A DNA stretch of 32,392 nt, taken from Candidatus Methanoperedens nitratireducens (GTDB taxonomy: Archaea; Halobacteriota; Methanosarcinia; Methanosarcinales; Methanoperedenaceae). The translations under genes were made by a program, and so were the position numbers. Shown here piece after piece: positions 3,675-32,392 of the stretch. The first letter of the stretch is position 1, and each line of letters opens with the position of its first letter. The DNA is taken from positions 4,192 through 36,583 of the forward strand of contig CBFFLL010000003.1 in assembly GCA_965642175.1 (NCBI GenBank). The letters run 5' to 3'. The notes beneath the pieces were generated by a model, which worked only from the letters and a program-made list of their open reading frames with translations, ran no database searches and was not told the origin of the DNA.

Positions 3675-4298
3675 TTATTCTTGCTTATCCACCCTGGTAA
3701 CGCGCAGTAATGCATTGACTGGTACGCCCTGGATGTCTTCGATGCCTTTTTTATCTACAAGTACGGCGATGGCTACAGGTTTTCCTCCAGCGCCCTCAAT
3801 AACTGCCACTGCTTCTGAAAGCGTTGTTCCGGTGGTTACCACATCATCTATAATTACGCAGTTCTTTCCTTCCACCTGCGCGAAATTCTGGCTGATAGTT
3901 CCGCCCATATCTTTTGATCCAGGCTCCCAGCGCTGCTTGTTGGGATGGTAGGTCGCGAATTCGCAACCCAGTTCGTCTGCGACAAGGTTTGCCAGGGGTA
4001 TCCCTGAAAGGGCGACGCCGATAACTACATCCACATACTGTTCTTCACCGAGGCTGTCAAAGATCATATCTATCAAAGCGCCGGCAATAAACCTCTGCCT
4101 GTTCGAGCTTCTGCCGATGTTGCTCCAGTCGACATAGATATCCTTTGGGGCCTGCGTGACATCTTTCTTTTTTGAGTGTACCAGAAGCCATGTTGCAGTT
4201 TCGCGTGAAACATTCAATTCGTCTGCGATCTGACCTGCGGACAGTCCGCCTGCCTGGAGTTCAACAGCTTTATGGATCAATTCGTCGATTGTTTTCAT
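3675..4298 (-). CDS. gfcR: Transcriptional regulator GfcR (HTH + orotate-PRTase-like domain)
   Basis: N-terminal HTH 'GQIADELNVSRETATWL', 'DIYVDWS', and PRPP-loop 'VIIDDVVTTGTT'. The start is probably MKTIDEL (4298), with an alternative at 4307. Confidence 0.88.
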   Translation of the reverse strand: MKTIDELIHKAVELQAGGLSAGQIADELNVSRETATWLLVHSKKKDVTQAPKDIYVDWSNIGRSSNRQRFIAGALIDMIFDSLGEEQYVDVVIGVALSGIPLANLVADELGCEFATYHPNKQRWEPGSKDMGGTISQNFAQVEGKNCVIIDDVVTTGTTLSEAVAVIEGAGGKPVAIAVLVDKKGIEDIQGVPVNALLRVTRVDKQE

Positions 4299-4477: not shown

Positions 4478-5089
4478 TTATTCTGAATGTTGAGTAATAC
4501 TAAGAAGTTCTTCAACTATTTTAAAAACCTGAGTTGAGGGATTACTATCAATACTTTTTAAATCTGTCATATTTTCTTCATGCATTTCATTTAACCGTTT
4601 CGCCCTGCTAATTGCACTTTCTCTTTTATTTTCTAATAACTCAAAATAATCTTTACTCTTATCGTACTTTGGTATCCATCTCTTTAATATTTCTTTCAAC
4701 TCATCATTATTTAGCTTCGAAAATCTATCAACGAAATGCAAAAGGTACCATAATTCATAAGAAGGGTTTGATAGACATAATTTAACATTCTTAGCCATTC
4801 TAAAGGCGGTAAAAATTGCCTCTTGTTTATTATTATCCCAATCAAAAACGCACCAAATAACATCCCCTTTTTTTAAATCTAAAGCATATTCTTCAATAGA
4901 TTCTCGGCAAAAATCAACAAGATTTTTAGGATCAGTACACCTTGCATTAGGTATTATAACGTCCAAATTATCATATCTAGTTCTATATTTTTTAAAATAT
5001 ATTGGTTCTGTTTCCGTTCCTTCACAAACGATAACAAATTTCTTGCGACGTTTTCTCCTTCCCACTTTTCTCTTCAAAGATTTTGTCAT
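4478..5089 (-). CDS. rloB: RloB-family protein (TOPRIM-like; AbiL/RloAB partner)
   Basis: Motifs 'IVCEGTETEPIYF', 'WCVFDWD', 'SNPSYELWYLLHF' and 'NPST', characteristic of RloB. Confidence 0.88.
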   Translation of the reverse strand: MTKSLKRKVGRRKRRKKFVIVCEGTETEPIYFKKYRTRYDNLDVIIPNARCTDPKNLVDFCRESIEEYALDLKKGDVIWCVFDWDNNKQEAIFTAFRMAKNVKLCLSNPSYELWYLLHFVDRFSKLNNDELKEILKRWIPKYDKSKDYFELLENKRESAISRAKRLNEMHEENMTDLKSIDSNPSTQVFKIVEELLSITQHSE

Positions 5090-5090
5090 T

Positions 5091-6359
5091 CTAAAATATC
5101 CTATCTTCTACAATGAAGGGCACGGCACCAAATCTACCAGCCTGATACCCTTTCTGGATATTTTCTTTTTTACGTAGATTAAATTCTACCAGAGAGTAAA
5201 GGTCGGTACTACCAACATCCGGGTTTTTGTCCGTGAACCATATTTGATCCCTGCGGAATAAATTCATATCTAATAAAATTGTGTTGTGCGTAGTGAAGAT
5301 TAATTGAGCATTGTTCATATTTTGATTTGGATCATGAAATAATTTAATTAAAAATTGTATCAATTTATAATGTAGTTTAATGTCTAATTCATCTACGATT
5401 AAGATTCGCCCATTGCTCAACACATCTATCAATGGACCTATTAAGAAAAACATCTTTTGTGTTCCTCCAGATTCTTCATCGAATTCAAATTGGACATCAA
5501 ATTCCGTATCTTTACCCTTATTACCTTTATGAGTGGTTTTAATATTGATATTCTTAATATCACCTTTTATTTCACTTATATAAGCCTTTAACTCACTTGG
5601 AAAAGTAGAAGGCAGATTCTCAATAGAAACATTTTCAACTGAGGCCTTAATATCCTCTATTCCTAAGTCGGCATTTGAAAGTGCTTTTAATATAAGTTCT
5701 TTCGATTTTTCATCTTTATTTAGCAAATTAATAGTAAATTCGGTCAATAAGGGATTTTCTTCAATATTTATAATTCGTAAATTATCTTTAAACCAGTCAA
5801 AAGCTTCAAATGACTTTTCATACTTCAACTGAGTTGAATTTGATAGATAAAGAACATTATCTAAAGTTCTGTCCTTTAAGAATTCTTGAAGATTATTGTC
5901 TATAGTAAAATAAAAATCATTAGTGTTTGACCTTTCGAAAATTATAGCTTTACGTCCTTTAGGATAATAATATAGATATTCATCAATAATTTTCTCACTT
6001 GTTGCTGATACTCCATACACATATCTATTTTTATTCTTTATAAAAATAACTTCAAATTTACTCGGCTTAGATAGATAGTCTTTGTCTAATTTAAATGAAG
6101 AAACATTAATTTTGGCATCTTTTTGATTCTTATGAGATGTCATGACCAAATGTGACAGAAAAGCAAAAGCAAGAATTAGATTACTTTTTCCAGATGCGTT
6201 GGCTCCATAAATCACTGCACTCCGCAAAAGACTATCCTTTTTCAATACATCTGTTTTGATTAAATTATTAACCAATGATTTATCAGAAGAAGATACCATA
6301 CTTAAAGTTACCTTTTCCTTGATAGAACGAAAATTTTCGACACTAAATTCAATCAACAT
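5091..6359 (-). CDS. RloA/AbiLi-like ABC-type (AAA_21) ATPase
   Basis: 'FSVENFRSI', Walker A 'GANASGKS', signature 'ESGGT', Walker B 'LIVDELD', 'QLIFTTH', 'RRDQIWF' and 'GRFGAVP'. It ends 1 nt before the rloB start and is very AT-rich. Confidence 0.9.
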   Translation of the reverse strand: MLIEFSVENFRSIKEKVTLSMVSSSDKSLVNNLIKTDVLKKDSLLRSAVIYGANASGKSNLILAFAFLSHLVMTSHKNQKDAKINVSSFKLDKDYLSKPSKFEVIFIKNKNRYVYGVSATSEKIIDEYLYYYPKGRKAIIFERSNTNDFYFTIDNNLQEFLKDRTLDNVLYLSNSTQLKYEKSFEAFDWFKDNLRIINIEENPLLTEFTINLLNKDEKSKELILKALSNADLGIEDIKASVENVSIENLPSTFPSELKAYISEIKGDIKNINIKTTHKGNKGKDTEFDVQFEFDEESGGTQKMFFLIGPLIDVLSNGRILIVDELDIKLHYKLIQFLIKLFHDPNQNMNNAQLIFTTHNTILLDMNLFRRDQIWFTDKNPDVGSTDLYSLVEFNLRKKENIQKGYQAGRFGAVPFIVEDRIF

Positions 6360-24308: not shown

Positions 24309-26159
24309 ATGGTCATTGCCGAAGAGCTTGCGAAAAAGCAAAAAGCCATTAGCATCGCAGAATTTTTCGAGAAGAACAGGCAGATACTGGGTTTTGATTC
24401 TAGCCCAAGGTGTCTCTTAACTTCCGTAAAAGAAGCGGTGGATAATGCACTGGACGCGTGCGAAGAATCAGGGATACTTCCAGATATTTTCCTCAAGATA
24501 GAAAGCAAATCAAAAGATAACGTTACTCTTATTGTTGAGGATAACGGGCCTGGTATCGTTAAAGAGCAGATACCAAGGGTTTTTGCAAAATTGCTTTACG
24601 GCTCGCGCTTCCATTCAGTTAAACAGAGCAGGGGGCAGCAGGGTATTGGAATCTCGGCTGCGGTACTGTATTCTCAGCTTACATCCGGTCGACCCGTGAA
24701 GATAGTGTCCAAGATCGATAAGAAGGCGCCTGCACATTATTTTGAACTTCTTATAAACACGCAGACCAACGAGCCTGAGATCATAGCAGATAAGATAATA
24801 GAATGGGACAGGATGCGTGGAACTCGCATCGAACTTGAGATGGCTGCAATGTATGTTAAGGGCAGACGCCAGTCAGTGTATGAATACCTGAAGGACACCG
24901 CAATAGTGAACCCCCATGCCCGTATCACACTTATCGAACCTGACAACAACCAGATAGTTTTTGAGCGGGTAACTGATAAAGTACCGGTTCAGGCTGCAGA
25001 GATACTCCCGCATCCGCACGGTATCGAACTCGGGACACTTATGAAGATGCTGAGATATACAGAAAAAGACGAAATGGCGCTCTTTTTACGACATTCATTT
25101 TCACGTATCGGGCCGCAGACAGCATCTGAGGTCTGCAAGAAATCCGGTCTTGATCCTGAAAAAGACCCGAAGGAAGTTACACTTGATGAGGCAAAAAGAC
25201 TGCATGAGGCTTTCACTAAAGTAAAGATCTTAGCCCCACAAACAGACTGCCTTTCCCCCATTACCGAGGAACTCATCCGCAAGGGGCTTGAGAAGGAACA
25301 TACCATTGATTTTATCGAGACCACGACGCGCCCAGCCGCAGTACACAACGGGCATCCGTTCCAGGTAGAGGCTGGTATAGCATACGGTGGAAACCTCCCA
25401 AAGGATGGGAAGGTAGAGATACTTCGTTTTGCCAACCGGGTTCCGCTTCTTTACCAGCAGGGAGCGTGCGCTGTGACCCATTCAGTCGAGGGTATTAAAT
25501 GGAAGGCATATTCCCTCGACCAGCCGGGGAATTCGATACCAGTTGGTCCTGCGATAATACTTGTGCATGTGGCTTCCACGCACATTCCTTTCACTTCTGA
25601 ATCAAAAGAGGCGATAGCCGACGTGCCTGAGATAGCCCAGGAGATCGACCTTGCGCTGAAAGATGTGGGTAGAAGGCTCAAACTTTACCTGTCAAGGCAG
25701 GATAAGCTCGAACTGAGACGGGAAAAGGAAGAGATCATCCAGAAGTTACTTCCTCTTATCGCCAGGAAGGTCGGGGAGATACTTGACCGTCCAACTCCTG
25801 ATATTGGACCTGTCGTGGCAAAGATAATGGGCAACGTGTTCATCAAGAGGCTCATCTCACAAAATGGCAAGGGATGCGAGGTTGAGATACGGCTTAAGAA
25901 CCACAGCGATGCTGTGCGGCACTTTTCACTTCATGAGACACTGTCTTATGCCATTAAAGATCCAAGCCCTGAGCCTAAAAAGATCCCTCTTGGTAAGCAG
26001 ACCGATCATCTATGGAAGATATCTCTTAAGCCGCAGGAAGAGAAGGCCATTATTTACAGGCTGGATATCAATTCAGAGGAAGCGTCAAAACTCCCGCAGC
26101 TTGTGGCTGAGGGGATCGATGAGGAACTTATCACAGGCGCAAAGGTGGTGAACATATGA
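24309..26159 (+). CDS. top6B: DNA topoisomerase VI subunit B
   Basis: GHKL motifs '[10 protein letters not shown]', 'DNGPG' and 'SRGQQGIG', plus 'RFANRVPL' and 'PFTSESKEA'. Confidence 0.98.
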
Positions 26160-27259
26160 CATTCAAGAGCAACAAAGAACTTCACGATTCACAGGCAAAG
26201 ACAACGCTAAAGAAGCTGATCCAGGATTTCTACGAGCAGTTCGAGAGCGAGAACATCCCTCATATCGTGCTGCCCACCCGAACAAAGAAGAATATCGAAT
26301 TAAATGAAGTATCTGATGTGTGGGTATATGGGGACAGCGAGAGCATGCGCAGCGCCAAGACCGTTAAGGGTGCAAGGCAGATCCTCAAGACCTCGTACGT
26401 GGTTGATCTTCTTATCAAGGGCCATCTTGATCTGGACAAGAGTTCAACGCTCAGAGAACTTTACTATATCAGCGAGAACTGGGATATAGCGAAGTTCCAT
26501 GAGCAGACAGAGAGCGACCGGCTGATAGAGGACCTTGAGATAATCACAGGCTTGCAGCGTGAGGATTTCCATGTGCGCCCTGAGGAGAACGGAGCCACGA
26601 TGTTCGGACCTGTCAAGATCAAAGAGGTCACAAAGCGGGGCGAGCGCACCATGCACTGCCAGGAGGACGTTGGCGAGGCAGGGTACCAGATACCCTACAA
26701 TGTGGAGACTGTACAGTTCCTTGAGCATGATGCCAAGTTCATTATCGCAGTTGAGACCGGCGGTATGTACGACCGGCTCATCGAGAACGGATTTGATGAG
26801 AAATTCAATGCAATTCTTGTGCACCTGAAAGGGCAGCCTGCGCGAAGCACAAGGCGGCTTATCAAACGCATGAACGGGGAGTTGAAGATACCGGTCGTGG
26901 TTTTCACTGATGGCGATCCCTGGAGCTTTCGCATCTTTGCAAGCGTTGCTTACGGAGCTATTAAGACAGCGCACCTATCAGAGTTCATGGCTACGCCAGA
27001 GGCAAAGTTCATAGGGGTGCAGTCATCTGATATCGTGGAGTATGAGCTTTCCACTGATAAGCTCAATGACCAGGATATCAAGGCGCTTCATAGCGAGCTT
27101 ACAGATCCGAGGTTTGAGACTGATTATTGGAAAGAGCAGATAAACATGATGTTGAAGCTTGGGAAGAAGTCTGAACAGCAGGCTTTTGCTGGGAAGGGGC
27201 TGGATTATGTGACGGATACTTATCTGCCTGAGAGGCTGGGGGAGATGGGGGTGGTGTGA
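26156..27259 (+). CDS. top6A: DNA topoisomerase VI subunit A
   Basis: 'STLRELYY' (catalytic Tyr), TOPRIM 'AVETGG', 'KGQP.R.TR', 'DGDPW' and 'KSEQQA'. Confidence 0.98.
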
Positions 27260-27392
27260 AGATGATAAATATCAGGCAAACGGATTTTAAATTTTATTTC
27301 AGAGAATTCTAACTGAAATAACCGAGTTTAAAGACGAGATAAAATGTAATCGAAACGATGGCTTTAATATTAAAGATGAATATAATAAAATC

Positions 27393-28241
27393 ATGAATGG
27401 AGAAGAAGATTACTTAAAAACACTTTCAAAAGATGGAGCTAATATAAAAAACATATTGACTTACATCAAATCGATTGATAAACTCACAGAAAATGATCCA
27501 ATTAATAACTTTCATAAGATAAAAAAGGATATGATTGGAATTGAAAAAACATTAAACCAGAGCAGATTGGATGGGTTTATAAAGGAAGGTATTGAGCAGC
27601 ATTTACAGCCAATAAAAGAAAAAATTCCTGAGTGGGAAGATTCTGTCCACAAAAGCTTTGGACTAAAATTAGAAGAATCGCTCCAGCAATCCGGATTTGA
27701 ATTAGAAGGGCACTATCCGAATCTCAAGGTTTTATTATACACTTTAGAAGTGAATTTAGAAAATAATACTGTTGCAATCTGGTTTGGCCCTCTGCAAGAA
27801 AAATTGAAAACATGCAAACTTGTACCTGAGGATATCGTTGAAAAACTAAAGGATATTCACAATAAGAATACTCAACAAAGGTATGACGATAAAACTTTCA
27901 GTTCATATTTATATGAAGCTTATAAAATAGCGTCTTACCGTAATAAACTAAAAATTGGAGAACAGGTAAAAATCAGGGATATTCTTTCTGAGTTTGCTTT
28001 TTTAATTCAGGATATTACGTTCAAAACAAATCCGATTAAGAATAGATACAAAGATTATGGGAGTGTTTTCTTTGCTTATGATTTATACAGGTTGAAAGAG
28101 AGGAACATAGAAAATCATGAAATAAACATGATAACTGCTACGAGGGCGTTTACTGCCAGAAGAGCTGATTTTTTGTGGATCCCATCAAATGAAAAAGGGG
28201 ATGGTAATTATATTTCACACATTAAGTTCAGGGAGCTATAA
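27393..28241 (+). CDS. Hypothetical protein, first gene of a putative defence operon
   Basis: 282-aa AT-rich ORF with a helical N-terminus, 'GHYP', 'FFAYDLYRL' and 'ATRAFT...FLWIP'. It ends 2 nt before the next ATG. Confidence 0.75.
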   Translation: MNGEEDYLKTLSKDGANIKNILTYIKSIDKLTENDPINNFHKIKKDMIGIEKTLNQSRLDGFIKEGIEQHLQPIKEKIPEWEDSVHKSFGLKLEESLQQSGFELEGHYPNLKVLLYTLEVNLENNTVAIWFGPLQEKLKTCKLVPEDIVEKLKDIHNKNTQQRYDDKTFSSYLYEAYKIASYRNKLKIGEQVKIRDILSEFAFLIQDITFKTNPIKNRYKDYGSVFFAYDLYRLKERNIENHEINMITATRAFTARRADFLWIPSNEKGDGNYISHIKFREL

Positions 28242-28243
28242 CG

Positions 28244-29491
28244 ATGGTAAATGAAGCTGAGAAAAATGTAGAAATAGATCATCATGTTGCGAAAAAAATT
28301 ATAGAAAGTGTGGGAGGTTCAGGAAACCCTCCTGAGTATGGATTCCAATATTTCACAGTTGGACTGGATGATTACCTTAAAACGATCGATGAAGAATATC
28401 TCAAAAGTTTCATAAAGGAAGGCGGCTCTACTTTTAAAATGGTAGTTGGAATATATGGGGGCGGAAAAACCCACTTTCTGTATTGTATTCGGGAAAATGC
28501 CTGGAAATACAACTATATAACATCATATATAGAATTAAGCCCCGAACAGACGCCGTTCCATAAACTGGATATGGTCTACAGGGCAATAGCTGCAAATCTT
28601 ATCTATACACAAACACCTGATGAACTTTTATCGGGATATGAAAGAGGAATAGAGGCGGTTATAAAAGCATTGTACAATCGAAAGTATATGGAAATTTCGG
28701 ATAAACTATCCCCGGATGCTGTACTGCAAGAACTTGATCGCTATGCTTCGTCTATTGGACCTTATGAAAGCACCAGTTTCAGAAATGCTATCAAGGAGAG
28801 CCTTCTTAGCCTTGCAGAAAAGCGTGATGATGATTTCACATTGATCATGCAATGGTTAAAAGGTGAAAATCCTCCTAAAAGTATGCTTAAAGAGTTTAAA
28901 ATTTTCGAAAAAATAGAGAAGAGCACTGCATTTAAAATGATACGTTCACTTGTGCAGTGGACACAGGAAATAGGATATTCCGGACTTATCGTACTTATGG
29001 ATGAAGCAGAACAAAATTCAAGCATGAGTTCCAAGCAAAAAAGTATTCTTCTTACTAATTTAAGAGAACTGATAGATGAATGCGGGCGGGGAAATTTAAT
29101 GCATACGATGTGGTTCTATTCAGTTCCGGATGAAAATTTTCTTGAAGGAAAAACGAACATTTATGAAGCTTTACGTCAAAGACTATCTGAAGTTTTTGAT
29201 TCAGAAATAAATCCAACAGGAGTAAAAATAGATCTTGAAAAAATTCCGATGGATGCAGTAGAACTGTTGATTGAAAGCGGAAGAAAACTGGCACATATTT
29301 ATGAAAAAGCTTACACTGTGCAATTTGATAAAATCGCACTTGAAGAAACTCTAAGTAATATCGCAAAGGCCGCTTATGAAAGAAAGAGGGAAATCGGTCA
29401 CAAAAGGCTATTTGTTCAGAAAATTGTTAAAGCATTTCATAAAATGCATAAAGATGGAAAACCTGTTTCTCCTGAAGATGTTGAGCTATAG
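28244..29491 (+). CDS. BrxD/DUF2791-like P-loop ATPase (copy 1)
   Basis: 'IIESV..SGNPP', 'F.VG', 'FKMVVGIYGGGKTHFL', 'PFHKL..VY', Walker B 'GLIVLMDEAE' and 'YEALRQRL'. Confidence 0.82.
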   Translation: MVNEAEKNVEIDHHVAKKIIESVGGSGNPPEYGFQYFTVGLDDYLKTIDEEYLKSFIKEGGSTFKMVVGIYGGGKTHFLYCIRENAWKYNYITSYIELSPEQTPFHKLDMVYRAIAANLIYTQTPDELLSGYERGIEAVIKALYNRKYMEISDKLSPDAVLQELDRYASSIGPYESTSFRNAIKESLLSLAEKRDDDFTLIMQWLKGENPPKSMLKEFKIFEKIEKSTAFKMIRSLVQWTQEIGYSGLIVLMDEAEQNSSMSSKQKSILLTNLRELIDECGRGNLMHTMWFYSVPDENFLEGKTNIYEALRQRLSEVFDSEINPTGVKIDLEKIPMDAVELLIESGRKLAHIYEKAYTVQFDKIALEETLSNIAKAAYERKREIGHKRLFVQKIVKAFHKMHKDGKPVSPEDVEL

Positions 29492-29503
29492 GGGCAAAGA
29501 AAG

Positions 29504-30820
29504 ATGCAGACGTTGGAACATAAAATATACGGGAGAGGAGAAAAACAAAAAGAAAGATTTAAAGGATTTGAACTATACATAAGATTTGAAGATGGTATCT
29601 CAAGATGGATCAGAAGAGACGATATTAGATTTATCTCTGTACCCACTATTCTAACAAAGCCGACAGAATCACAACCACCTGTATTATCGATAGAGCAGTT
29701 TAAAGCAAGGCAAATAATTGAAGCATTAAAATTAGGTATTGTTCCTCATAGCGACATTGGAATGTTTACATTCGGACGCCAAAATGAAATAGATCAAATT
29801 ATTAGCTGGTTAAGTGATCCAGATGATGGGACAATGGCAATAACTGGCGAATATGGAAGTGGAAAGACGCATTTCCTGGAATACATATATTCAACAGCCC
29901 TCAAAGATAATTGGGCAGTTTCAATAGTCAATCTTGATCCCGGCGAATTATCATTTCATCAACCAAAGAAAATTTATGAATATATAATCAATTCGTTCAA
30001 ATTTAAAAATAAAGATGGGAATTTCAGGGAATTTTTAAGAGAAATCGCAAACAGCCATGATTTTAATAAACTTAGTGAACATCAATATCTAAATAGGGCC
30101 ATTGAAATAATTAGAAATGAAGCTGATGAAGAAGACTTCTGGGAATGGATAGAAGGAAAACCCGGTTGGTATGATTATCCTCAGATGCACGACTCTTCTA
30201 CAAGTGCAAATATCTACTGCTATTTATTGAGTGGAATTGGCTGGGCTTTGAAAAATATTCTTGGATTGAATGGTTTGTTAATTTTATTTGATGAGGGGGA
30301 AAGTGTAGATTCTTCCTGGTACACCTCATATCAAAACAAAAATTCACTAAATTATTTAACAGGACTTATTCTAATGGCAAATAATGACAAACGGCTGGTG
30401 AAAGAAGTACAAGAAGATAAATTTTATCAGCATCGAACTTATAAAGGATGGTGGGGTTCTAATACAGGATTACAGTATTGCGGTCGCAGCCAACTGCCTT
30501 TTTTATGGAACAATCCCTGCAGTGTTAAAACGATTCTTGCGTTTACTCCGGATTTTTCGATTCTGGACAGGGAGCCATTCAACATGGCTAAAGAATTAAA
30601 ACTTGAGCAGATCGGTAACGATGTGATCTTAAGGGAGATTTCAGAAAAAATCATCGAAATATACAAACAAGCGTATGATTACAAAGGTAATATTCACATA
30701 TCTGAAATAGTTGAATTTGTACCAAAAGATAATATTAGAAAATTCATTAAAGGGATAGTGGAAGCGTTAGACCTTATGCGATTTTACCCTGACAAAAGTA
30801 TGGAAGAGCTCGTAAGATGA
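29504..30820 (+). CDS. BrxD/DUF2791-like P-loop ATPase (copy 2) with a small N-terminal beta-barrel domain
   Basis: 'IIEALKLGIVP', 'GRQNEI', 'GEYGSGKTHFL' and Walker B 'GLLILFDEGE'. The N-terminus reads 'LEHKIYGRG...LYIRFEDG'. Confidence 0.82.
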   Translation: MQTLEHKIYGRGEKQKERFKGFELYIRFEDGISRWIRRDDIRFISVPTILTKPTESQPPVLSIEQFKARQIIEALKLGIVPHSDIGMFTFGRQNEIDQIISWLSDPDDGTMAITGEYGSGKTHFLEYIYSTALKDNWAVSIVNLDPGELSFHQPKKIYEYIINSFKFKNKDGNFREFLREIANSHDFNKLSEHQYLNRAIEIIRNEADEEDFWEWIEGKPGWYDYPQMHDSSTSANIYCYLLSGIGWALKNILGLNGLLILFDEGESVDSSWYTSYQNKNSLNYLTGLILMANNDKRLVKEVQEDKFYQHRTYKGWWGSNTGLQYCGRSQLPFLWNNPCSVKTILAFTPDFSILDREPFNMAKELKLEQIGNDVILREISEKIIEIYKQAYDYKGNIHISEIVEFVPKDNIRKFIKGIVEALDLMRFYPDKSMEELVR

Positions 30821-32388
30821 GTTGCGCCGGGCAAATTATTGAAATAAAGAGAAAACTTGGCAGAACATGGAACACTTTTTTTAGTAAATTCGGAAATTTA
30901 TTAGAAATCCAATTGAAAGCTATACCTGTGGTATTAGAACGAAAAAATGCCATAGTCGTTTCATCAACTGCAAGCGGAAAGACGGAAGCTGTGGTGGCGC
31001 CATTAATTGAAAGGTTTTTAAGAGAAGAATGGAAAAATCTGGCGATCCTGTATATTTCTCCAACAAAGGCTTTAGTCAATGATATCTACTATCGCTTAAA
31101 CGGTCAATTGGAGGAACTTGAAGTTTCAGTATCAATAAAAACCGGGGATAATCCGCAATTTAATCCCAATAAACCTCCGAATTTTTTAATAACTACACCG
31201 GAATCTTTTGATTCATTGCTTTGCAGGCATCCCGGATCATTTAATGATATAAAAGCTGTTATCCTGGATGAACTGCATCTTCTGGATAACACTTACAGGG
31301 GCGATCAACTTCGCCTGCTTTTGAAGAGGTTAAAATGTACTGCACAGACGGATTTTAATATGTATGTACTATCTGCTACCATAAGCGATCCGGAAGAAGT
31401 AGCATGCAGATATTTTAAAAATTTTGAGATTGTTAAAGCTTCAGGCAGGCGGGAGATCGATTATACACTTGTTCAATCGGTTAGAGAAGTTTTTGAATAT
31501 ACAAAAATAGAGAGACTTAAAAAGTTACTGATCTTCTGCAATAAAAGAGCAAGTACTGAGACAATGGCGTCGGAATGCAAGGGTTTGTGGGAGTCTAACC
31601 GGGTAGCTGTTCATCATGGAAGTCTAAGCAAAACAATCAGGGAAGAAGCCGAGAGCTTTATGAAAGAATCGCAATATGGAGTTTGCATAGCCACTATGAC
31701 GCTAGAAATTGGGATTGATATCGGAGATATTGATTCTATAGTGCTTGCAGAAGTTCCATGGAGTATTTCGTCGCTGCTTCAAAGGATCGGAAGAGGAAGC
31801 AGACGCACACTTAAGAACAGGGTTTTTGCTATTTACAATTCAGATTGTGAAAAGATGCTGCTTGAACACATGTTTAAATATGCAATTGAAGGGTATGTTG
31901 AATCAGTTGATTACTCACCGGATCTGTCTGTAGCGGTACAACAAATATTTTCATCTCTTTATGCCAATCCGAAAGGACTGGATAATATATATTTTTCGGA
32001 ACTTTTTAATGAATTCTGTTCAGAAAACGATCTTAAGGATATCTCAAATTATCTTATGAGAAAAAGCTGGATAGAAAAAAGAAATAGAAAATGGTATGCG
32101 GCAACCAAATTGATGGATTTGGGGGATAAAGGGAAAATTCATTCGAATATACCTAATAGTAAAAGATTGGTAGTTATCGATGTCAATTCCAAACGAATTG
32201 TGGGAGAGGTACAATATCCGGTTGATGATATTTTTCTTTTTGGGGGGAGTATCTGGAGAATAGTCAATATCCTGGGAGATAAAATATACGTGAAACCTGA
32301 GAAGGGGGAAGCATCGGCGATAAAATTCAAAAGCTGTGATTCAAATGGAGCATTTTATTATTTTTTGCCGGGGCATTTGAGGGAGTGA
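30817..32388 (+). CDS. Lhr/BrxHI-like DEAD/DEAH SF2 helicase (compact, 523 aa)
   Basis: Q motif 'IQLKAIP', I 'TASGKTEA', Ia 'YISPTKALVND', Ib 'TTPES', II 'DELH', III 'SAT', 'HHGSLS', V 'TLEIGIDIGD' and VI 'QRIGRGSRR'. ATGA overlap with the ATPase gene. Confidence 0.9.
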   Translation: MSCAGQIIEIKRKLGRTWNTFFSKFGNLLEIQLKAIPVVLERKNAIVVSSTASGKTEAVVAPLIERFLREEWKNLAILYISPTKALVNDIYYRLNGQLEELEVSVSIKTGDNPQFNPNKPPNFLITTPESFDSLLCRHPGSFNDIKAVILDELHLLDNTYRGDQLRLLLKRLKCTAQTDFNMYVLSATISDPEEVACRYFKNFEIVKASGRREIDYTLVQSVREVFEYTKIERLKKLLIFCNKRASTETMASECKGLWESNRVAVHHGSLSKTIREEAESFMKESQYGVCIATMTLEIGIDIGDIDSIVLAEVPWSISSLLQRIGRGSRRTLKNRVFAIYNSDCEKMLLEHMFKYAIEGYVESVDYSPDLSVAVQQIFSSLYANPKGLDNIYFSELFNEFCSENDLKDISNYLMRKSWIEKRNRKWYAATKLMDLGDKGKIHSNIPNSKRLVVIDVNSKRIVGEVQYPVDDIFLFGGSIWRIVNILGDKIYVKPEKGEASAIKFKSCDSNGAFYYFLPGHLRE

Positions 32389-32392
32389 TGGG

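Follow-up and report, generated by a model that had tools for sequence, protein, structure and literature searches.

The stretch of DNA analyzed here (the window) comprises 32,392 nucleotides (nt) from Candidatus Methanoperedens nitratireducens, positions 4,192 to 36,583 of contig CBFFLL010000003.1, and ends in a cassette of four genes on the forward (+) strand, which we call A, B, C, and the helicase gene. The cassette is conserved and mobile, and it is related to the helicase modules of Shango and of bacteriophage exclusion (BREX) systems, apparently without having been named. Gene A (27393..28241) encodes a 282-amino acid protein of an uncatalogued family, gene B (28244..29491) a 415-amino acid ATPase of the BrxD/DUF2791 family, gene C (29504..30820) a 438-amino acid divergent paralog from the same family, and the last gene (30817..32388) a short, 523-amino acid Lhr-like/BrxHI-type superfamily 2 (SF2) helicase. 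The open reading frames (ORFs) are as described in the original prediction, which had been made from the sequence alone: tightly coupled, with spacings of 2, 12, and −4 nt. Its start about 130 bp behind top6A (133 nt from the top6A stop to gene A, as measured) and its AT-richness were likewise reproduced, with a GC content of 0.32–0.375 compared with 0.48–0.50 in top6B/top6A. For the whole cassette the value is 0.356, which only 7 of the genome's 394 5-kb windows match in lowness.

The contig ends 4 nt beyond the helicase stop codon. Despite this, the helicase of the window is complete, because its 28 full-length relatives span 522–551 amino acids. Ratios of nonsynonymous to synonymous substitutions (dN/dS) relative to locus L043 are 0.10, 0.05, 0.22, and 0.12 for the four genes in order, indicating that all of them are under purifying selection. 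Contigs from RNA runs (X15 and X16) overlap fragments of the cassette, which is not a demonstration of transcription, and a promoter scan with a bacterial consensus, applied to this archaeal host, stayed at the level of shuffled sequence.

Related cassettes were found at 50 loci, 28 archaeal and 22 bacterial; the operon had been introduced as archaeal, a description that the bacterial loci no longer permit. Conservation of the gene order, which the original prediction had named as a point to check, was borne out: the order A-B-C-helicase is intact at 32 of the 50 loci and cut by contig ends at another 8, whereas nine loci show A-B-C followed by other DNA and one shows A alone. No fifth conserved gene (integrase, primase, polymerase, or other) surrounds the loci. 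A distant subfamily with the same four genes lies on plasmids of Desulfomonile (L138) and Aulosira (L143). Its A homologs are recognizable at 51–53 bits (hhalign 98%), its helicase has 700 amino acids, and its C protein lacks the N-terminal Tudor-like cap described below. In one group of Methanosarcinales (L029:13455-14379, L031, L033, L035, L037, and L040), the junction of C and the helicase gene is itself an insertion point, where small genes or rearrangements part the helicase from C; the helicase is retained.

Both ATPases belong to the BrxD family. B matches PF10923 with 167.1 bits (8e-49) and C with 71.2 bits (1e-19), the latter over its N-terminal part only, at a gathering score of 22.2. 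Against the BrxD equivalog NF033438, the scores of B (131.7 bits) and C (55.1 bits) do not reach the cut-off of 350, and B scores 89 bits against the PADLOC model of SngB. The two proteins are recognizably homologous to each other (hhalign 99.9%). In a quick tree of 47 ATPase sequences, B, C, BrxD, and SngB form four separate, well-supported groups, the B and C clades being set apart from 6 SngB rows with a Shimodaira–Hasegawa-like approximate likelihood ratio test (SH-aLRT) value of 100. The two highly diverged ATPase paralogs that had been proposed are therefore separate old clades. The internal splits of the B clade mirror those of the C clade, indicating that the B-C pair is old and was inherited together.

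As predicted, the Walker A and B motifs are intact in both ATPases. B features Walker A Lys-75, Walker B Asp-253–Glu-254, an invariant Arg-313 at the arginine-finger position, and Arg-388 at the sensor-2 position; C features Walker A Lys-121, Walker B Asp-263–Glu-264, and Arg-412 at the sensor-2 position, and its arginine-finger helix is deleted. We call Arg-313 an arginine finger because of its position before strand 5, together with PMC12839542. In the alignment, all 19 B/BrxD/SngB rows have this arginine and all 8 C rows lack it; in the C rows of both subfamilies the finger-bearing helix is either deleted or devoid of an arginine.

C carries an additional 45-residue domain at its N terminus (residues 1–45, 29504..29638, +), found on 40 of 46 C proteins. 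We call it Tudor-like because of a weak resemblance to PF21196 (PcrA/UvrD Tudor), which was seen in 5 of 13 C N termini and remained below the cut-off (best E value 0.0015, 18.8 bits compared with a gathering score of 23.9); the N terminus of the C protein of the window itself gave no match to PF21196. A three-gene variant, A-B-C, occurs at L047, L048, L049, and L062, where no cognate helicase was found and C lacks the cap. The cap is thus missing in 4 of 4 helicase-less loci, and also in 2 loci that possess a helicase. A tie between the cap and the helicase may exist, only hinted at by these sequences, as the 4 helicase-less loci perhaps represent two events. A sequence search of solved structures with C gave no real match.

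The helicase possesses the SF2 motifs that had been claimed for it (ASGKT, DELH, SAT, and QRIGR). It scores 236 bits against PADLOC SngC and 234 bits against BrxHI, but covers only positions 21–560 of the 720 of the SngC model, lacking the ∼160–180-residue C-terminal domain of SngC and BrxHI. Reference helicases comprise 697–748 amino acids (BrxHI 702–721), and the profile of the cassette helicases stops near their residue 520–530. "Lhr-like" helicases without Domain 4 are known as scattered archaeal members credited to horizontal transfer (PMC8301817). The available text of that study gives gene neighborhoods for aLhr1 and aLhr2 only, and no operon or function for the group lacking Domain 4. 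One member comes from Aciduliprofundum sp. MAR08-339, whose genome likewise contains a homolog of A (P0017), and we infer that the Lhr-like helicase and P0017 of this strain lie at one locus. In the Atlas, P0017 falls into clusters without names only.

Gene A has no match in Pfam, PADLOC, or NCBIfam, and 150 members of its family show no consistent Pfam or PADLOC match. A profile built from it retrieves 758 representatives at 50% identity clustering; in the closest relatives, from Candidatus Methanoperedens, the protein is 95–100% identical. AlphaFold2 predicts A with predicted local distance difference test (pLDDT) values of 90.3 and 96.9 as a helical bundle (residues 1–99), a small β-sheet domain (residues 100–162), and a winged helix (residues 164–282; 27882..28238, +). 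The winged-helix domain is basic, with a median net charge of +4 across the family. VIA-align of this domain returned Z scores of 6.7 (7jpo_A; root mean square deviation 3.4, 80 aligned residues), 6.5, 6.5, and 5.9 (1fnn_B). Ranks 1–3, 6, and 8 are entries of the origin recognition complex (ORC)/Cdc6 type, and other winged helices follow within 1 Z unit. In the model, "winged helix" is the sole secure fold call for the C terminus of A, the likeness to ORC1/Cdc6 being weak. With full-length A, VIA-align found generic helical bundles alone.

A had been proposed as a novel sensor or effector. Instead of an effector, the protein resembles a DNA-binding adaptor: no set of catalytic residues is conserved as far as the distant subfamily, and no membrane segment was found in A or in any other protein of the cassette. 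The family members P0082–P0088 possess a ∼60–70-residue insertion in the helical bundle, and that of P0083 is annotated as Rho_N (PF07498), which also points to nucleic acid binding by the A family. Longer fusions of A were sought and not found, a result of little weight, and what looked like a fusion of A and B at L062 was dismissed, as the reading frames differ. Prediction of a complex of A (residues 62–282) with B and C scored 0.01, with controls not folded, and counts neither for nor against such a complex.

The closest characterized layout is that of Shango, which consists of the TerB-domain protein SngA, the ATPase SngB, and the helicase SngC (bioRxiv 10.1101/2022.11.11.516204 and 10.1101/2022.05.11.491447), is defined by TerB (10.1101/2022.05.11.491447 and 10.1101/2025.09.30.679545), and gives a modest, 10–100-fold protection (bioRxiv 10.1101/2022.11.11.516204). 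Like Shango, the cassette is a stand-alone operon in which an Lhr-like helicase follows a first gene and DUF2791 ATPase, and it contains neither methylase nor nuclease. In contrast to Shango, its first gene encodes a 282-residue protein without TerB (SngA has 440–848 residues), it has two ATPases that both fall outside the SngB clade, and its helicase is ∼200 amino acids shorter than SngC. The original prediction had recognized no TerB signature in the first gene, and profile searches agree: TerB/SngA matched neither A nor appeared among the families listed for the 150 A-family members, and the A profile matched none of six SngA proteins. hhalign of A with a shallow profile of six SngA tails gave 0.1%. 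Fold searches with A returned no TerB protein among the matches listed, which does not exclude a shared fold. To the eye, the 60–70 C-terminal residues of six SngA proteins (the first genes of L137 and L144–L148) have a winged-helix look. Lacking TerB and possessing two ATPases from outside the SngB clade, the cassette is, by its gene content, not a member of Shango.

The cassette also resembles the dyad that BrxD and BrxHI form in type 2 and type 6 BREX, in which an ATPase of the ORC/Cdc6 clade stands beside a Ski2/Lhr-like helicase (PMC12839542). According to the same source, BrxD-type ATPases lack a DNA-binding domain, BrxD is proposed to load or activate BrxHI, and type 2 PglZ, the product of the upstream gene, has a winged helix at its end. 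Such a C-terminal winged helix may be common to every upstream partner of a BrxD-family ATPase (SngA, type 2 PglZ, and A), although a comparison of the A profile with the PglZ tail, both profiles being shallow, revealed no detectable homology. In contrast to BREX, the cassette is devoid of pglW, pglX, brxC, and pglZ, adds a second ATPase without arginine finger, has B and C outside the BrxD clade and below the NF033438 cut-off, and lacks the Lhr-type C-terminal domain of BrxHI. No PglZ, BrxC/PglY, or PglX lies upstream in the window, as had been claimed, and no pgl genes follow the cassette at L013 and L014, two loci nearly identical to it, the DNA behind the helicase of the window itself being unassembled; genome-wide, the search was for PglZ and did not extend to PglX and BrxC. 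PglZ is also absent from the host genome (94% complete) and from 32 of the 50 carrier genomes, many of them incomplete, whereas 18 of the 50 contain PglZ-domain matches. The claim that the system stands alone agrees with these counts. With no pgl core in the locus, a BrxD cut-off that is not reached, and a short helicase, the cassette is, as far as sequence comparison goes, not a type 2 or type 6 BREX system.

Comparison of the copies indicates that the cassette is a sharply bounded, AT-rich 5-kb unit that was recently transferred. It is 98.1% identical to that of L021, whereas the top6 region of L021 is merely 85.5% identical, and 94% identical to that of G018, where it lies behind mutL and Top6A is 85% identical. 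Similarity to copies elsewhere opens at 27339–27348, ∼45–55 nt ahead of A, and closes at the helicase stop; blastn against L013, L015, and L021 places the 5′ boundary and a short leader at 27339..27392 (+). A loose end lies at 27346 in run X3, and the allele L074 diverges at the 5′ boundary. Further insertions lie behind a topoisomerase I gene. Six of the 53 host-family genomes contain gene A, as do 10 of the 27 from a sister family, many genomes in these counts being incomplete. A second intact copy (L020, at G000:C156:965-5953) shows 52, 70, 53, and 65% amino acid identity for the four proteins; its DNA is 97% identical to G050 of another family, a likeness that reflects either recent transfer or a bin contaminant. 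By eye, no terminal repeats were seen at the cassette ends. A palindrome at the 5′ boundary was considered as a recombination site and dismissed: it has 3 matches in the genome against 1.4 expected, and its sequence belongs to a short dispersed repeat family. In L074, a short dispersed repeat opens exactly at the cassette 5′ boundary; the genome contains some ten partial copies of it, often at contig ends (G000:C98, C204, C288, C15, C43, and C44).

To assess the neighborhood, we surveyed 37 loci, the other 13 of the 50 being short or redundant, and took as many as three ORFs of 120 or more amino acids on each side, 162 ORFs in total. The controls were 37 arbitrary stretches from the same genomes, of which 36 were obtained and 35 had ORFs; 147 of 164 control ORFs were scanned, those left out being the last ORF of each six-ORF stretch. 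Restriction, nuclease, or BREX-type neighbors occur at 11 loci and toxin–antitoxin genes at 6 more. Defense-type Pfam neighbors are thus found at 17 of 37 loci compared with 5 of 35 controls (Fisher p = 0.005), and strict restriction/nuclease types at 11 of 37 compared with 3 of 35 (p = 0.036), both p values being inflated by related genomes that are not independent and the classes having been assigned by hand from Pfam names, which weakens the case for a defensive function. The enrichment in defense islands that was to be checked was seen in part, and the remaining 20 loci have neither kind of neighbor; the defense-neighbor signal is real, though of moderate strength. The four-gene relative at L138 adjoins an AbiE toxin–antitoxin pair, that at L143 lies directly behind a BREX pglZ-brxD-helicase block, and at L053, as the sole case among the 37 loci, pglZ and brxL follow just downstream.

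ORC/Cdc6 complexes consist of AAA+ subunits of one clade that play unequal catalytic roles, and they contact DNA through winged helices. In the cassette, by contrast, the winged helix is predicted on a separate protein, and the client would be an SF2 helicase instead of a minichromosome maintenance (MCM) ring; the resemblance serves as a working analogy. On balance, we consider it probable that the cassette is a stand-alone mobile unit that defends against viruses or plasmids by ORC/Cdc6-like, one-directional loading of its minimal helicase on foreign DNA. The nearest characterized ATPase-helicase pairs, those of Shango and type 2 BREX, are antiviral. A would bind DNA by its predicted winged helix, thereby providing in trans the domain that BrxD-type ATPases lack. 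B would donate its arginine finger to a neighboring B or C, whereas C, with a complete nucleotide site but unable to activate a neighbor, would close off one end of an open B(n)-C spiral, a shape that suits a loader and not a closed motor ring. Such a hetero-oligomeric ATPase, which the original prediction had also proposed, is deduced from the motifs. The resulting B/C oligomer on DNA would be short and one-directional, and its capped end, perhaps via the Tudor-like domain of C, would pass the DNA to the helicase. Because none of the four genes encodes a nuclease, a methylase, or a membrane protein, the cassette would act by unwinding or stripping replication or transcription intermediates of the invader, and self would probably be told from non-self by DNA structure (an origin, fork, or end), which is a more likely mark of foreign DNA than methylation. 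In the BREX-related MANTIS/Gao_RL, a partner is likewise loaded onto DNA by an AAA+ ATPase together with a co-regulator; the cassette lacks the methyltransferase and helicase-nuclease of MANTIS (bioRxiv 10.64898/2026.09.23.753747). The bolder proposal, of an unnamed and widespread antiviral system derived from a split ORC/Cdc6-type licensing machine, with the minimal Lhr helicase as sole effector and no cutting, methylating, or killing, is one that we put forward tentatively and regard as doubtful.

Several observations weigh against defense by helicase loading. The search for an effector in the cassette found no nuclease, methylase, or membrane segment, and defense-type neighbors are missing at 20 of 37 loci. 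The Z scores of the winged helix of A (at most 6.7) lie in the range of common arrangements of the tool and are tied with unrelated winged helices, and Foldseek found nothing at E ≤ 0.001 for full-length A or its C-terminal part. In 5 of the 9 genomes with A-B-C next to other DNA, a cognate helicase (62–70% identity) is encoded elsewhere, in the other 4 none was found, and in the complete chromosome with A alone, B, C, and the helicase gene lie ∼570 kb from A. Keeping the helicase, or B, C, and the helicase, at a distance also fits a settled host function.

The main rival is accordingly a role in accessory maintenance of host DNA, in which the loader would place the Lhr-like helicase on the host's own stalled forks or R-loops and the defense neighbors would merely share insertion hotspots. 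Lhr helicases have been tied to repair and fork structures (PMC7437997 and PMC8301817), all genes are kept when the operon splits, copies of the cassette sit behind top6A, mutL, and a gene for topoisomerase I, and the lack of an effector and of defense neighbors at most loci is what such a role would leave behind. We nevertheless judge it unlikely, as gene A occurs in so few genomes of the family, the cassette was recently transferred, one assembly holds two divergent copies, the GC content is low, and the closest characterized relatives are defense systems.

A module for replicating or maintaining a mobile element, with A binding the origin, B and C as Cdc6-like initiators, and the helicase serving the element, would account for the ORC/Cdc6-like parts and for the relatives with long helicases on plasmids (L138 and L143). 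We consider it very improbable: the shared DNA stops ∼50 nt ahead of A and at the helicase stop, the fifth gene that such a module might carry is not conserved, and gene A was found neither in plasmid records by single-sequence tblastn nor in viral contigs. It is just as improbable that the cassette has already been catalogued under another name. The A family is large, and the PADLOC profiles used (version 2.0.0) date from 2023. Those protein profiles gave no full match to a catalogued system, however, and no description of the A-B-C-helicase layout was found in the literature searched, mostly outside subscription journals; the available parts of PMC4158269 and PMC12458937 contain nothing on such a module. 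Least probable of all is a detached BREX helper, equivalent to BrxD-BrxHI and acting in trans with a BREX core encoded at another site of the genome, to which the family kinship, the PglZ matches in some carriers, and the single locus with pglZ and brxL point, but against which stand the host genome and the majority of carriers without a PglZ match, the placement of B and C outside the BrxD clade, and L143, where a separate brxD-helicase pair already accompanies the four genes.

The insertion site of the cassette deserves a comment of its own. The host gene top6A (26156..27259, +), recognized by Pfam and outside the cassette, marks with its 3′ end a hypervariable insertion slot of the genus: among 30 genomes, the cassette occupies the slot in 3, and nearly every congener (L073–L100) has different genes downstream. 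In 13 of the 27 remaining congeners, PIN, ParE, PemK, HicAB, HEPN-nucleotidyltransferase, Fic, HNH, or DndB-like genes lie within 1.5 kb. Unannotated ORFs in this slot (L076, L081, L086, L091, and L093) are candidates for defense genes. At L094:3065-3262, part of the top6A 3′ end is present as a duplicate behind an inserted HicAB pair, which suggests insertion by recombination into the top6A end. Elsewhere in the window (4478–6359, −), an AT-rich pair of an AAA_21 ATPase and an RloB-like gene, a known defense-type module, lies between housekeeping genes.

The cassette pares the kind of ATPase-helicase pair known as BrxD-BrxHI in type 2 BREX and as SngB-SngC in Shango down to four small soluble proteins, in which the ATPase appears split into an arginine-finger donor and a cap, a division that makes the idea of helicase loading testable with point mutants. 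If the split-licensing proposal is true, the cassette would be the simplest handle on both dyads. If it is defensive, it would represent a system spread across many archaeal and bacterial phyla, with a first gene whose family of 758 representatives is undescribed in the libraries searched. For the methane-oxidizing genus itself, it exposes a hotspot of defense and toxin–antitoxin genes behind top6A.

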